This document shows positions 126 through 11,699 of a stretch of 25,097 nucleotides of DNA, piece by piece. A program made the translations under genes and the position numbers. The notes beneath the pieces are model-generated. The model saw only the letters and a list, made by a program, of their open reading frames with translations. It had not been told where the DNA came from and made no database searches. Source of the DNA: an uncultured Gammaproteobacteria bacterium (lineage in GTDB: Bacteria > Patescibacteriota > Patescibacteriia > 2-12-FULL-60-25); the NCBI GenBank assembly GCA_964598895.1, contig CAZRDS010000007.1, forward strand, positions 1,585 to 26,681, in the 5' to 3' direction. Position 1 is the first letter of the stretch, and every line of letters begins with the position of its first letter.

Positions 126-893
126 TCAAGAAAATGGGTGAAATATCACGAGCCGGTCTCGCTCCTCCCGCCGTGCGCGATCCAAGAGCTTCAATTCTCC
201 ATGCGCTTCCCTTAAACGTTTGAGATGGGCGACCGCCTGCTCTGGGTAGAGATGCGCTTCTGGGGCGAGGGCGCTCCAGGCTTGCTCTGCCGCCTGCCAT
301 TCTGGCTCGATCTGCGCCTTCCGAATTTCCAGCCAGTCTACGAGGTCGTCTAAGACCGGTTCCGTGGCACGTGGCGCAAGATAGACCGCTTGCACGAGAG
401 GCTGATCTGTTGACGTAGCCGCTTCTTCTATCCGCTGAACTTGCTCTTTTCTATTTGGCTCATCGACCTGAATGCCACGAATCGTGAGTTCAGACCGGAT
501 CATTTCAACACGTAATTTATGCGCTGGCTCAAGCTCATGTCGCTGGCCCGCTGCCCGACAGAAGGTCACCCACTCGTGCCATTCATCCATGAGTTCGCGA
601 TGATCTTTGCAGCTGACCTCCAAACGACGGATGGCATTCTGCAAAATCTTGCGAATAGATTCGATCGACGCTTGTTCCTGAAGAAATTCTTCGTCCGACA
701 ATTCGTTTGCCCGTTCAACAAAACGATCGACCGTACGCGCATAGGTACGGGAGAGTAATTCAAGTTCAGCGCGCAATCCCTCGTGTTCTTCGAGAACGGT
801 TTTTTGCCAGGCACGAATATCACCCGCTTGAGCGTGGGTGTTCGTCGCTGGACGATCGAAGAGGCGTTTCCAGGCTTGGAGAAGGGAGGGCAT
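126..893 (-). CDS. Hypothetical alpha-helical/coiled-coil protein (255 aa)
   Basis: Long ORF starting 5 nt after the stop of the upstream gene; E/R/L/A-rich helical sequence; no recognised motif. Confidence 0.8.
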   Translation of the reverse strand: MPSLLQAWKRLFDRPATNTHAQAGDIRAWQKTVLEEHEGLRAELELLSRTYARTVDRFVERANELSDEEFLQEQASIESIRKILQNAIRRLEVSCKDHRELMDEWHEWVTFCRAAGQRHELEPAHKLRVEMIRSELTIRGIQVDEPNRKEQVQRIEEAATSTDQPLVQAVYLAPRATEPVLDDLVDWLEIRKAQIEPEWQAAEQAWSALAPEAHLYPEQAVAHLKRLREAHGELKLLDRARREERDRLVIFHPFS

Positions 894-898
894 AGAGG

Positions 899-3331
899 TT
901 AGCGCGTTGTCGCACGACGGCGAATTGGCTTACGTACGCGCGGAGTCGTCGTTGCCGGCGGAGTAGAAGAAGTGGACGTCGTTACAACGGGGTTGAGCGC
1001 CGCGAATTGATCTGCGCGTTTATGGAGAACTTCTTTGAGCTGTGTTTGATACCCTGCTTCACTCGGGGCTTCTGCCACCAAGCGCTGTAAAACAGCGGTC
1101 GCTTCTTCCCAACGCTCTGCTTGCACAAGAGCGAGCGAGAGCTGCCATTGGTAGTCTAATACGGTTGGCGCATCCTTTACCAAACGAAGAAGCACGTCTA
1201 CTGCTTTTCCAGGTTCTTGCGTACGGCGATAGAGCAGCGCGAGGGGCAGCAGGATATCCGGGGCGCTCGGGTGCGCTGAAGCAAGCCGTTCTAGGTCAGC
1301 GATTGCCTCAGCGGTCTTGCCCGATTGCGCGAGCCACGCCGCTTTTGCGTAGAGGGCGGGCAAGTAATCTGGTTTACGACGAAGAGATTCCTGGAGTGCT
1401 TGTTCGGCGGCTGTATTCGCGCGTGTTTCTCGTTGAAGCGCTTCTTCTTTTTCTCTCCCCTGCCCTTGCTCTACCCAGTGCGCTTCACGAAGCGCACGTT
1501 GGCGCTGGATCCCAAATACCGTGAGTGGTGAGCTCGGGTCTGTTGGGCGAAGTTCGTCCAACTCTTCCGCAAGGGCAAGGACCGAGTCTTCTTGCCGTTC
1601 ATCAAACGTCGCGCGCATACGCGCAACTTGGAGCGCGAGCGCGACATGCTCTGGGTCTATCGGGTTTCGTTCACGTGCGACAGTGAGCGCCTTCTCCGCT
1701 CGATCGAGAAACATCGGTGCGAGCTGAATACGAGAACTATTTGCCGCTGTTTGCGCTTGCGCAAGATAGAAACGCGCTTCTTCTGCAAAGGTAAAATCAT
1801 CGGCACTATTCAAACGACGAGCAAAAGGAAGCGCGTAAGGTTCTGGCGAGGTAAGAAATTCTGCGGCTGCAGCCCGTTGGAGCGTGAAGATGCAGGCGAT
1901 GATAGCCCCGACAAAACCAGCCCCAACAAAGAGGCGGCTCACGAATGGTTGCTCTGACCAAGAAATGACCGTCTTCGCCGGTTCAAATATCTGAGAAGCG
2001 AGGAGTCCTACGAAGAGCGCGAGTGAGAGCAGCGAAAGAACCGTTGGTGGACGAAGCGCAACAAACGCGAGACCACCCAGCACCAGAAGTCCTGTGAGCA
2101 CAATCGTCGACTCTCCTATTTTTCGTGCGCGTCTAAAGGCGCCCCCGAGAAGGACGAGCAAAAAAAGCACTCCAAAAAAACTAGGCAACATCCCATATTC
2201 CGTTACAACCATCGCGAGCGCGGAACTTGCCCGTGGGAAACGCGCATCCCAGAGGGGTGTCTGATTGAGACCCAACGGACGAGCTTGATCGAAAGCTGAA
2301 ATCCAAGAGCCAGGCCCCACTCCAAAGAGCGGTGCGCGATTCAACGTCTGGCGCACGACCTGCCAGCTCAGCGTTTGGTTCGGCAGGAGTTCTGTCAGCA
2401 TATCAAGCCTCAACGCCTGACGATCCATCTGAACCCAGGTTGGCATGACGAGTTTTGCGGAAGACTCTGCCAACCCGACGAGCGAACATACGATCGCGGT
2501 GAGCGAAATAAACCCTGCGAGCGTCAGACGTCGCTGCTTTAATAAAACGACAAGCCCAGTAGCACTCGCCCCCACAAACACCAAGATCCAAAGCGCATCA
2601 AGCTGGACCAAGAGTCCCACCCCCAACAAACCCACGAGCACCATTGCGAGGAACGCATGACTCAGGCGATAACCAAGTAGACGCTTCGCTGTGAGCGGTG
2701 CCTCCACACTCGAACGTGTGGCAAGTAACAGAAGCCCACTCAAGAACAGAAGCGGGACGCTCAACAAGAGATCGAGTGCGCCTGGCGAGTGTCTCGTGAG
2801 CGCCCCAACGAGCGCCACACACATACCCGCCATCCAGGCACGTAAAAAGACACGCGCCACACGCGGATCGCGCTGCACGGCATCACGGAGAGCCACGACC
2901 AACCCCAACCCTATAAGAAGCACCGCAAAAGAGGTACTCACCTGCGCGCCCGTTCCCAACCAAGAAATCGCTCGATGCGCAGAAAAAAACCACGCGCCAC
3001 TCGAAACGAGCCCGATGAGTCCAATCCACAGAGGAAATGTCGACCAGCGACGAGGCTCCGAAACGGCTCCATCCAAAATTAAACTTCCCAAAAATGAATA
3101 GGCACTTCGCAGCACGAGCCAGAGACTAAATGCGACCAGGCTCAACAGAACCTTTGGGAGTTCATTTCCATCCAACCAGTGAGGAATGACAAACCAAGGC
3201 AAGAGAAAAAGATATAGCGCGAGCAAGCCGCTCATCCAATGCGCAAGATTCAGCCGCCACATCGTTCGCCAAGAATGCGGAAATGGCCGCGGAAACGACT
3301 GCGAAAAAAGAGCGATCACGGTGCGCGTCAT
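899..3331 (-). CDS. O-antigen ligase-like (Wzy_C-type) polytopic membrane protein with C-terminal TPR repeats
   Basis: Many hydrophobic segments; loop motif W..V......PLFGVGPGSW followed by EYGM; TPR-like repeats (PDYLPALYAKA..., APDILLPLALLY..., YQWQLSLAL...); Thr-rich then basic C-terminal tail. Confidence 0.75.
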   Translation of the reverse strand: MTRTVIALFSQSFPRPFPHSWRTMWRLNLAHWMSGLLALYLFLLPWFVIPHWLDGNELPKVLLSLVAFSLWLVLRSAYSFLGSLILDGAVSEPRRWSTFPLWIGLIGLVSSGAWFFSAHRAISWLGTGAQVSTSFAVLLIGLGLVVALRDAVQRDPRVARVFLRAWMAGMCVALVGALTRHSPGALDLLLSVPLLFLSGLLLLATRSSVEAPLTAKRLLGYRLSHAFLAMVLVGLLGVGLLVQLDALWILVFVGASATGLVVLLKQRRLTLAGFISLTAIVCSLVGLAESSAKLVMPTWVQMDRQALRLDMLTELLPNQTLSWQVVRQTLNRAPLFGVGPGSWISAFDQARPLGLNQTPLWDARFPRASSALAMVVTEYGMLPSFFGVLFLLVLLGGAFRRARKIGESTIVLTGLLVLGGLAFVALRPPTVLSLLSLALFVGLLASQIFEPAKTVISWSEQPFVSRLFVGAGFVGAIIACIFTLQRAAAAEFLTSPEPYALPFARRLNSADDFTFAEEARFYLAQAQTAANSSRIQLAPMFLDRAEKALTVARERNPIDPEHVALALQVARMRATFDERQEDSVLALAEELDELRPTDPSSPLTVFGIQRQRALREAHWVEQGQGREKEEALQRETRANTAAEQALQESLRRKPDYLPALYAKAAWLAQSGKTAEAIADLERLASAHPSAPDILLPLALLYRRTQEPGKAVDVLLRLVKDAPTVLDYQWQLSLALVQAERWEEATAVLQRLVAEAPSEAGYQTQLKEVLHKRADQFAALNPVVTTSTSSTPPATTTPRVRKPIRRRATTR

Positions 3332-10765: not shown

Positions 10766-10766
10766 A

Positions 10767-11699
10767 CTAGAAATTAGAGGTCAGCGTGAAATAGACCATC
10801 TGCGAATAATCCCCCAAACCCGTCGCACCCGTAACACCTAGCTTGAATAACAATAGAAAACGGTCTGGGGACGAAGTTGCCGGCACCAAACTCGACACAA
10901 TCGCTCGTTGCGTGGTCGTCACTCCTAAATCCTTTCCCGCAGAAACTGCATGCAATCCGATCGCCTCCGCCCCATATTCTTCTGCGTCGCTTGAGACCGT
11001 CTCATCCGTCACATCAGCGATCGTACCCGTCGCAGAAGCGAGCGGACCACTCGCTTGAATATAGACCGTATGTCCACTACTTGCCGATGAGTAAATCGAA
11101 CCTCCCGCAAGCGCCGAAAGCTCAGAACCAGGGGTAATCGTTCCAAACGGAATCGAAGCTGAGTCCAATTTATACACGTAGTCATTATTTCCCGTGGAGG
11201 TGAAGTCCATGAGGGCCGCGTCTCCATCCCACTCATCAACCGTCAGAATATCTCCACTCATACCGGTTATTTTGCCGATAGCTGCAAGAGCCGCATATCC
11301 ACGATCCTGGACTGCCACAATATAATCCCCCACAGCGAATCCTACCGTAGAAGAAACAACCACATAGCCCGGACTGCGAATATCAAACGTTTGATAGCGT
11401 GTCGATACAGACTGTCCGTACGCAATAAATGAAAGACTAAATGGATCCGAACCTCCCCGATACCCAGCCTCTAATGTGTAGCTCGTACTCGTTCCCGACC
11501 CTGATACAGGTTGACCAATCGTGTCATACAGTGAGTAGCTCGTACTCGTTCCCATTTCATTTCCACCAGTATTCACGCTATCCCAAGGAATACTGTAGTG
11601 CGTACTCGTCATCGCCTGAGCTTCAAGCGATGCCCAGGTACTCCAGAGTCCAAGGAGGAGTATCGAGCAACTTAAGCAAAGAGCAAAAAAGAGCTTCAT
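10767..11699 (-). CDS. Secreted WxL-like/pilin-like beta protein (probable start MKLFF at 11699)
   Basis: Signal peptide; N-terminal repeats MTSTHYS/GTSTSYS/GTSTSYT..AGY; C-terminal SIPFG.ITPG...GHTVYI...GDYSQMVYFTLTSNF, resembling the terminal strand of WxL and fimbrial subunits. Confidence 0.7.
   Translation of the reverse strand: MKLFFALCLSCSILLLGLWSTWASLEAQAMTSTHYSIPWDSVNTGGNEMGTSTSYSLYDTIGQPVSGSGTSTSYTLEAGYRGGSDPFSLSFIAYGQSVSTRYQTFDIRSPGYVVVSSTVGFAVGDYIVAVQDRGYAALAAIGKITGMSGDILTVDEWDGDAALMDFTSTGNNDYVYKLDSASIPFGTITPGSELSALAGGSIYSSASSGHTVYIQASGPLASATGTIADVTDETVSSDAEEYGAEAIGLHAVSAGKDLGVTTTQRAIVSSLVPATSSPDRFLLLFKLGVTGATGLGDYSQMVYFTLTSNF

Follow-up and report, generated by a model that had tools for sequence, protein, structure and literature searches.

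Members of the candidate phyla radiation (CPR), or Patescibacteria, are mostly obligate episymbionts, and the means by which they hold host cells are largely unknown. Among adhesive fibres specific to CPR, the Pam pilus is the first whose structure has been solved. Two filaments of this kind, formed by PamA and PamB of Ca. Mycosynbacter amalyticus, were determined by cryo-electron microscopy (Troman et al., bioRxiv 2026; PMC13278184), and in both a linker strand inserts into the C-domain of the neighbouring subunit. The pam operon further encodes two PapD-like chaperones with a C-terminal transmembrane (TM) helix (PamC and PamD), a single-domain tip, PamT, which is described as non-polymerising and was not found as a filament, and an FN3-type, TM-anchored base, PamR, whose N-terminal strand enters the last pilin; there is no usher, and the neighbourhood has a tail-fibre-like gene as a central member (PMC13278184). 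PamR itself consists of an N-terminal strand, an RbmA-like pair of FN3 domains and a C-terminal TM helix. Here we describe a locus of six genes, termed g1 to g6, in a 25,097-nt stretch of Patescibacteria DNA ("the window", by which the whole stretch analysed is meant; about 52% GC) from a genome of a size usual for CPR, 1.09 Mb in 101 contigs, that is 92% complete. The locus very probably encodes a Pam-type pilus system, in which subunits would be assembled by usher-less, chaperone-guided donor-strand exchange. Our preferred reading, to which we give a probability of roughly 0.65, is that it specifies a Pam-type surface appendage in a minimal, probably shaft-less form; whether a shaft is lacking, taken as a question by itself, is evenly balanced.

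A pilus of the same logic, the WxL (Elr) pilus of Enterococcus, has been described by Sleutel et al. (10.64898/2026.10.17.759780); its chaperone is the membrane-anchored DUF916/DUF3324 protein ElrE. Neither preprint mentions the system of the other (PMC13278184; 10.64898/2026.10.17.759780).

Comparison of the locus with described pilus systems

The locus has in common with the Pam pilus the lack of an usher, predicted export by Sec, a homologous membrane-anchored chaperone with two immunoglobulin (Ig)-like domains (g2), and, in its tip subunit (g1), the N-module, a homologous pilin C-domain and the same C-terminal strand. The pilin N-domain and its linker are also shared, an FN3-bearing, membrane-anchored base (g3) occupies the same operon position, and a homologous fibre gene (g4) lies downstream. 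The homology of g2 and g1 to Pam proteins bears out the original prediction, made from the DNA of the window, that a pilin-like subunit belongs here to a surface appendage of the chaperone type that works without an usher. The locus differs from the Pam pilus, on the other hand, in that a shaft pilin of the PamA, PamB or PamE type is lacking, a single chaperone is present, the tip carries an inserted beta-domain, and the base is not a PamR homologue but a fusion of 1135 amino acids (aa) that joins an N-domain, a donor strand, FN3 domains and a polytopic CarboxypepD_reg module. Further differences are the linkage of a Wzy_C-like gene with tetratricopeptide repeats (TPR), the scores of g1 far below the NCBIfam cut-offs (models NF058578, NF058579 and NF058581), and the setting, which comprises parS, tRNA-Arg, rpsT, holA and polA instead of an ATP-synthase neighbourhood.

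The WxL (Elr) pilus of E. faecalis has a TM-tethered chaperone that primes subunits by donor-strand complementation, the role predicted here for g2, and it combines an acceptor-only tip of variable payload with a donor-only base, as in our reading of g1 and g3. Unlike that pilus, the locus shows no WxL domain, DUF3324 match, LPXTG motif (none at the C-termini of g1 to g4) or sortase; anchoring would be provided by the base's own membrane module, and the donor strand, an N-terminal extension in the Elr system, would be an internal linker following the N-domain. Classical, alternate and archaic chaperone-usher pili (Pap/Fim, CFA/I, Csu) resemble g2 and g1 in their two-Ig chaperone fold and incomplete Ig pilin domain, respectively, and the last strand of their subunits, like that of g1, has a Gly some 15 residues before the terminus, alternating hydrophobic residues and a terminal aromatic. 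The logic of assembly, tip first and terminated by a base, would also be the same. These systems differ from the locus, where an usher (PF00577), an outer membrane and PapD_N are all absent and the chaperone is membrane-bound rather than soluble. As judged from predicted models, the likeness is one of fold and mechanism and not of demonstrated common descent.

The six open reading frames (ORFs) all lie co-oriented on the minus strand of the window. The first three are separated by single bases, as originally noted, the g1/g2 junction reading TTC TAG T ATG and the g2/g3 junction CCC TAA T ATG; the remaining gaps measure 137 nt (g3-g4), 42 nt (g4-g5) and 5 nt (g5-g6). Hydropathy agrees with the earlier statement that all products but the last are exported or membrane-bound, with signal peptides on g1, g2, g3 and g4, 12 hydrophobic segments in g5, and neither a signal peptide nor a TM segment in g6. 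The six proteins are also, as had been said, free of sortase, usher and prepilin-peptidase domains in Pfam and NCBIfam scans. No Sortase or Usher Pfam match was found genome-wide (in the 92% complete genome), and the one Peptidase_A24 gene is on another contig (C45), away from the locus.

The membrane-tethered chaperone

The product of g2 (9803-10765, minus strand; 320 aa), assigned as a membrane-anchored pilus chaperone from its fold, hidden Markov model (HMM) matches and PF06030 matches, has the build of the membrane-anchored, PapD-like chaperones of Pam systems: a signal peptide precedes two Ig-like domains (aa 28-285), and the C-terminal TM helix (aa 287-317; nt 9815-9907) is followed by a basic tail, RRR. 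The AlphaFold2 (AF2) model, with a predicted local distance difference test score (pLDDT) of 85, consists of two beta-domains and the helix at 287-317. Its top Foldseek matches are CfaA (2e-10), the E. faecium WxLIP structures 9i25 and 9i1y, CsuC, Caf1M and FimC; in VIA-align the best match is WxLIP (Z 12.7 over 226 residues), and SfaE, Caf1M, FimC, CsuC, CfaA, EcpB and PapD follow with Z of about 11-12 over both domains. As bona fide Pam operons we took L038, L040, L042 and L043, which encode proteins scoring above the NCBIfam thresholds of the PamT, Pam_pilin_C and PamR models; their chaperones are matched over the full length by the g2-family HMM (A2) at E 1e-47 to 1e-68; g2 is therefore a homologue of the Pam chaperones.

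A second kinship is suggested by PF06030 (DUF916/WxLIP_PGBD). The score of g2 itself is 16.1 bits against a cut-off of 27.3, sub-threshold matches recur in 25 of 29 members of its family, and the cut-off is passed by three homologous Pam-type chaperones (L042:9239-10294, 34.9 bits; L046:10859-11830, 31.7 bits; L044:10203-11207, 27.7 bits), one of which belongs to a bona fide PamT operon. A broader chaperone profile (A5) also matches EfmWxLIP1 across its whole first domain (E 0.0018). PapD_N (PF00345) gave no match in g2 or its family at E<=1, nor did DUF3324 (PF11797) match g2 at that threshold or the g2 family. On these profile matches we regard the g2-family chaperone as a DUF916/WxLIP relative. 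The initial description of a two-Ig, DUF916/PapD-like membrane protein holds for g2, given its PapD/WxLIP fold, its Pam homology and the recurrent DUF916 matches; the protein is better read as a chaperone than in the function first assigned to it, that of an anchor or dock.

These same matches are among the arguments for regarding the locus as a Firmicute-type WxL/Csc complex, either a peptidoglycan-bound static platform or an Elr-type pilus, that was transferred into a CPR genome: PF06030 is hit consistently in the g2 family, the closest structure is an E. faecium WxLIP, and the design of membrane chaperone, acceptor tip and donor-only base is that of the Elr pilus (10.64898/2026.10.17.759780). 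The remaining hallmarks are missing, however. The WxL domain (PF13731) was detected neither in g1 at E<=1 nor in ten bona fide Pam pilins at E<=5, DUF3324, the LPXTG motif and sortase are likewise absent, and the closest relatives of all four core proteins (g1 to g4) occur in CPR Pam loci. In an even sample of 301 Patescibacteria genomes (the unpublished G193 enters the tallies only), the chaperone family is present in 143, or 116 of the 254 of high quality, many with 2-6 copies, and is therefore native to this group rather than a recent import. We consider such a transfer highly improbable, and membership of the locus in the WxL/Csc class is largely refuted.

A PamT-like tip subunit

The layout of g1 (10767-11699, minus strand; 310 aa from the ATG), a PamT-like tip subunit by the PamT model, AF2 and hhalign, was derived from an alignment of 30 homologues (A1), the AF2 model and HMM dissection. 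All of its parts are encoded on the minus strand. A signal peptide (aa 1-29) is followed by an N-module of three TST(H/S)Y(S/T)(I/L) repeats (11445-11612; aa 30-85), delimited by alignments A1 and A4 and by conservation, then by strand A of the pilin domain (11382-11444; aa 86-106), an inserted beta-domain (11187-11381; aa 107-171) and the core of the pilin C-domain (10770-11186; aa 172-310), placed by hhalign and structure matches. The AF2 model has a pLDDT of 82 overall and above 90 for residues 89-310.

The pilin domain of g1 aligns with bona fide Pam pilin C-domains in hhalign (Prob 94.7%, E 5.7e-8, 131 columns), and the two end at the same C-terminal residue with the common motif G.Y....T..F-COOH. 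The C-terminus quoted in the first description, GDYSQMVYFTLTSNF, is confirmed; the end of the protein reads G-D-Y-S-Q-M-V-Y-F-T-L-T-S-N-F-COOH. More than 40 of the best 50 structural matches are donor-strand pilin domains, among them CsuA/B, CfaE, FimG, FimH and PapA (Z 5-6.5, about 3 A root-mean-square deviation over 110-120 residues), values that are middling but consistent. Of the original designation "pilin/WxL-like", then, the pilin part is upheld by the C-domain homology and the common C-terminal strand, and the WxL part is not, no such domain being detectable. Among NCBIfam models, PamT (NF058579) matches the N-terminal 90 residues only (E 8e-10; 38.5 bits against a cut-off of 240), and Pam_pilin_C (NF058581) yields no hmmscan match at E<=1. 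Sequence searches of the PDB with A1, g3 and g4 returned nothing useful, and no solved Pam structure was matched.

The inserted domain is missing from short PamT-like forms of 205-258 aa, PamT included (P0035 and P0036 are examples in A1). We therefore read g1 as a subunit of the PamT kind, acceptor-only, to which a further domain has been added. The insert HMM matches family members only, and there is weak similarity to phage tail-tube and tailspike insertion domains. As a candidate binding "payload", the insert beside a pilin domain is comparable to the arrangement of two-domain tip adhesins.

The N-module is common to bona fide PamT proteins (alignments A1 and A4), and in many loci its HMM matches PamT-like proteins. 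No other part of g1 is so well conserved, but the monomer model leaves the N-module unplaced, with a pLDDT of about 40. These properties are central to the main rival of our reading, in which g1 would itself form the shaft as a head-to-tail homopolymer, one N-terminal STxY repeat serving as donor strand, and g3 would only terminate and anchor the fibre. Such an arrangement would parallel the N-terminal donor strands of classical chaperone-usher pilins, WxL/ElrD, TasA and archaeal bundling pilins; conservation combined with disorder in a monomer model is typical of donor strands, the third repeat stands directly before strand A of the C-domain, in the position of the linker strand of two-domain pilins, and g1 is the first gene of the operon and has a conserved, dedicated chaperone. 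The same N-module, however, is present in bona fide PamT, the non-polymerising tip (PMC13278184), its repeats do not resemble the conserved linker motif, and in operons with several pilins that carry the linker, a single protein with the N-module is retained. We therefore consider self-polymerisation of g1 through its N-module unlikely, and the polymerisation of g1 envisaged in the original prediction is doubtful because the protein matches the non-polymerising PamT.

A candidate donor-strand base and membrane anchor

The large product of g3 (6394-9801, minus strand; 1135 aa), assigned as base and anchor from Pfam, a g3N HMM and alignment, runs from a signal peptide through a pilin-type N-domain (9271-9726; aa 26-177, from the g3N HMM), a linker, a Gly-rich spacer, FN3 domains (aa about 215-500), a Pro-rich spacer and a beta-domain to a membrane module (aa about 705-1135) that includes three CarboxypepD_reg domains. 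Pfam matches are to fn3 (1.3e-16) and CarboxypepD_reg (2.2e-29); hydropathy marks hydrophobic segments at 834-852 and 1000-1018, and more are apparent by eye. The first 190 or so residues share homology with the N-domain that two-domain Pam-like pilins carry (g3N HMM; E 2e-44 for a protein of 358 aa in L046), and the alignment extends through the linker. In the pilins the linker, (D/N)Q(V/I)xV(T/S)A(T/S)V, leads into the C-domain; in the g3 family a linker of the form D.(V/L).V(T/S)ATV, here GLTVTATVTATV, leads into the Gly-rich spacer and FN3, and no pilin C-domain, the acceptor, is present in g3. By analogy with the solved PamA and PamB filaments (PMC13278184), this segment (9232-9270, minus strand; aa 178-190), which alignment places at the linker and which coincides with a local peak of conservation, would act as the donor strand. 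Being donor-only and membrane-anchored, g3 would, from the polarity of those filaments, therefore be the base. The FN3 domains of the "scaffold" first proposed are real; the protein is most likely not a displayed passenger but an anchor or base equipped with a pilin N-domain and donor strand.

Direct homology with PamR was considered and rejected: g3 has no NCBIfam match to the PamR model (NF058578), and hhalign of the g3 family against PamR gives a Prob of 7.5%. Its place in the operon, its FN3 domains, its candidate donor strand and its anchoring in the membrane make g3 a putative PamR analogue.

In the conservation profile of g3, the membrane module scores highest. Within it (window 6397-7314; aa about 830-1135), CarboxypepD_reg (transthyretin-like) domains alternate with membrane segments, and the positive-inside rule would put two of these domains in the cytoplasm, which is unusual for the domain and hints at an intracellular partner, possibly g6. 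A different solution is seen in another genome of the same class (G037), where a 438-aa protein (L023:16864-18180) combines a g3-type N-domain and linker with an FN3-like part and has, in place of the membrane anchor, a C-terminal pair of dockerin-like repeats (DxNxDGxIDxxD); this may be a donor-only base protein, possibly tied down by dockerin.

Proposed assembly

In the assembly that we propose, g1 to g4 would be exported by Sec, and g2 would complement the incomplete Ig fold of g1 with a donor strand of its own. That chaperone strand would then be displaced from the g1 groove by the linker strand of g3, and the acceptor-only tip would thereby be clipped to the distal end of a donor-only, membrane-anchored stalk of about 830 residues. 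If g1 only accepts and g3 only donates, no shaft would form. More speculatively, the N-module and insert of g1 may bind either the surface of the host or the g4 fibre as a partner, components may be O-glycosylated by the Wzy_C-like g5, and the purpose of the structure may be attachment of the episymbiont to its host.

In the genome carrying the locus, the N-module, C-domain, chaperone, pilin N-domain and fibre N-domain occur once each, all of them here, and no two-domain shaft pilin (N-domain, linker and C-domain) was found in the locus or in the rest of the 92% complete genome. Most genomes of the family have a single chaperone, including the closed genomes G014 and G340, and in the first of these, a relative, there is one chaperone and one C-domain protein.

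Several points weigh against a shaft-less Pam-type appendage. A shaft pilin could lie in the missing part of the 92%-complete genome, and some relatives do carry an extra two-domain pilin (G013, G020) or a multi-pilin cluster (G011). The N-module of g1, conserved but unplaced in the model, could itself act as a donor, g1 stays below the NCBIfam cut-offs (PamT 38.5/240 bits; no hmmscan match to Pam_pilin_C), and g3 is not a homologue of PamR. We infer both the donation from g3 to g1 and the complementation of g1 by g2 from homology alone, and the roles of g4, g5 and g6 from synteny only. Expression, finally, is unsupported by contigs from RNA libraries, in which genes and spacers are covered alike.

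Conservation and distribution

All ten family loci read keep the order g1-g2-g3-g4, and in several of them g5 and g6 come next; g1 is matched in 22 of 24 other genomes of the family; this recurrence argues that the arrangement is not due to chance. The order also matches that of bona fide operons, PamT-(pilins)-chaperone-anchor-fibre. In the 301-genome sample, the PamT model matches in 70 genomes, 65 of which also have the chaperone, and the fibre N-domain occurs in 91, of which 72 have it; Fisher tests on this co-occurrence overstate its significance, the related genomes being non-independent. In more than 30 genomes, PamT, chaperone and fibre genes lie within about 10 kb of one another. Both the conservation of gene order and the co-occurrence in related genomes on which the original prediction had staked itself are therefore found. 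Bona fide PamT occurs, in this sample, only outside the class to which the genome is provisionally assigned; a placement in Uhrbacteria is tentative, with one named homologue at 45% identity in its favour. A search of 1.84 billion representatives with A1 retrieved 2,501 relatives (E<=1e-3), of which about 55-60 are full-length with the insert and many are of the short form.

The extra pilin genes of relatives take two forms. In G020 (L019:2664-3719) and G013 (L020:2500-3540), which represent two genera of the family, the homologues of g1 and g2 are separated by an extra gene whose product, of about 350 aa, is a complete two-domain pilin, with an N-domain, a linker NQVxVTA.V and a C-domain ending in ATF or GSF, and this is possibly the shaft subunit that is absent from the genus represented in the window. 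In G011, also of this family, contig 2 carries a second, separate Pam-like cluster (L057:8738-13904) with three pilin-like genes of 446-469 aa ending in ...YQIVA(S/Q)Y and a chaperone of its own (314 aa); no counterpart was found in the genome of the window.

The fibre-like protein and linked genes

Downstream of the base, g4 (3374-6256, minus strand; 960 aa) encodes an exported fibre-like protein, recognised by a g4N HMM and by synteny. It has a conserved N-domain (5477-6145, minus strand; aa about 38-260), two tandem modules (aa about 320-470 and 590-720), each starting with D(L/F)AE(Q/R)Y, and a tail rich in Thr, Ser and Pro; inspection by eye shows D-x-x-E motifs where the modules start. 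The N-domain HMM matches the giant fibre genes that follow PamR in L038, L040, L043 and L046 (E 1e-26 to 1e-30), so that g4 corresponds to the tail-fibre-like neighbour of Pam systems; relatives range from 934 to 3351 aa. Searches of Pfam and PHROGs gave only weak tail-fibre and cement-protein matches (6e-5 for a PHROG tail fibre), and NCBIfam a weak match to Bdello_MAT_N (E 0.025). The mosaic adhesive trimer (MAT) fibres of Bdellovibrio are like g4 in an N-domain of the INYQGxLxDxxGxPxxDGxY type and in variable size and composition; all matches to MAT and phage tail fibres are below cut-offs, however, and g4 differs in its signal peptide and Thr/Ser/Pro-rich tail. The idea of an autocleaving fibre has a language-model atlas lead (0.92; 22 of 30 named hits in Peptidase_G2 clusters), and neither Peptidase_G2 (PF11962) nor Peptidase_S74 (PF13884) matches the genome at E<=10.

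The polytopic membrane protein g5 (899-3331, minus strand; 810 aa) combines its hydrophobic segments with a C-terminal TPR region, identified by Pfam matches. It is probably O-antigen-ligase (Wzy_C)-like: PF04932 reaches 13.5 bits against a cut-off of 31.7 (E 0.028 within the genome; aa about 234-350), a score that has no hmmscan counterpart, and all top atlas hits are to Wzy_C+TPR clusters (feature similarity 0.97-0.98). The Wzy_C-like character assigned at the outset thereby receives weak support. Wzy_C-family enzymes include the pilin O-oligosaccharyltransferases PglL and PilO. The PamA filament map contains an unexplained modification on Ser356 (PMC13278184), and a role in glycosylation is a plausible candidate function of g5, which is syntenic in 7 of 14 loci, another family included. 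Five nucleotides further downstream, g6 (126-893, minus strand; 255 aa) encodes a cytoplasmic helical protein without signal peptide or TM segment, for which Pfam, NCBIfam and PHROGs gave no significant family match; it is conserved, and syntenic in L014, L015, L018, L021 and L027.

Genomic setting and sequence divergence

The spacer upstream of g1 (window 12054-12458) contains three copies of the palindrome TGTTTCACGTGAAACA, the parS consensus, with A/T arms. It is followed by tRNA-Arg(CCT) (12468-12542, minus strand) and rpsT (12932-13192, plus strand), beyond which lie holA, polA, a penicillin-binding protein gene, dnaN and dnaA; the parS palindromes and the proximity of holA, polA, dnaN and dnaA therefore place the pilus locus in the origin/centromere region. 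A scan for promoters and terminators gave counts near shuffled expectation.

Four metatranscriptome runs of a single wastewater study hold the locus, in contigs that span genes and spacers at even depth. These contigs differ from the window by <=0.05% over positions 1-7300 (g6, g5, g4 and the g3 membrane module), by about 2-3% over 7303-12050 (the g3 ectodomain, g2 and g1), and by about 0.5-0.8% in the rpsT-holA-polA region, the break in divergence falling at about residue 833 of g3, its first membrane segment. This unevenness looks like an allelic replacement tract that took in tip, chaperone and stalk as one unit; contigs of this kind can be chimeric.

The same break can be taken to indicate separate histories, in keeping with a further alternative, that g1 to g3 alone are the appendage and g4 to g6 a neighbouring unit, consisting of a fibre, either free or bound to the wall, and an enzyme that glycosylates it. 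The 137-nt gap between g3 and g4, against the single-base coupling of g1, g2 and g3, and the 19 of 91 fibre N-domain genomes without a chaperone point in the same direction. Set against this are the more than 30 sampled genomes, from many families, in which no more than about 10 kb separates a fibre N-domain gene from a chaperone gene, the same post-anchor position of the fibre in bona fide Pam operons, and the central place of a tail-fibre-like protein in the pam neighbourhood (PMC13278184). We consider an independent g4-g6 unit distinctly improbable.

Implications

The Pam-type kind of this locus is known; what is added here is its stripped-down form and the kinship of its chaperone with that of WxL pili. 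The Pam machinery extends well beyond the lineages named in its first description, the chaperone count (143/301) being far above the numbers of genomes reported there for PamA/PamB homologues (PMC13278184). A bolder proposal, which we hold only tentatively and think rather less likely than its negation, is that in this family the Pam pilus has been cut down to a spike of fixed length made of two polypeptides, with the N-module of the tip as a monomer-to-trimer adaptor for the g4 fibre, and that the CPR Pam chaperones and the WxLIP/DUF916 chaperones of Bacillota form one family, the "CPR-exclusive" Pam pili and the Bacillota-confined WxL pili being branches of a single monoderm chaperone and strand-exchange pathway.

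If the shaft-less reading is true, the locus represents a Pam system that has dispensed with the shaft pilin and built the donor strand into the membrane anchor, and this minimal form offers a simple two-protein test case for usher-less strand exchange. The kinship of the chaperone with DUF916/WxLIP of Gram-positives links two systems that were described independently in 2026. For the episymbionts themselves, the conserved fibre and the Wzy_C-like enzyme are candidates for host recognition and pilin glycosylation.

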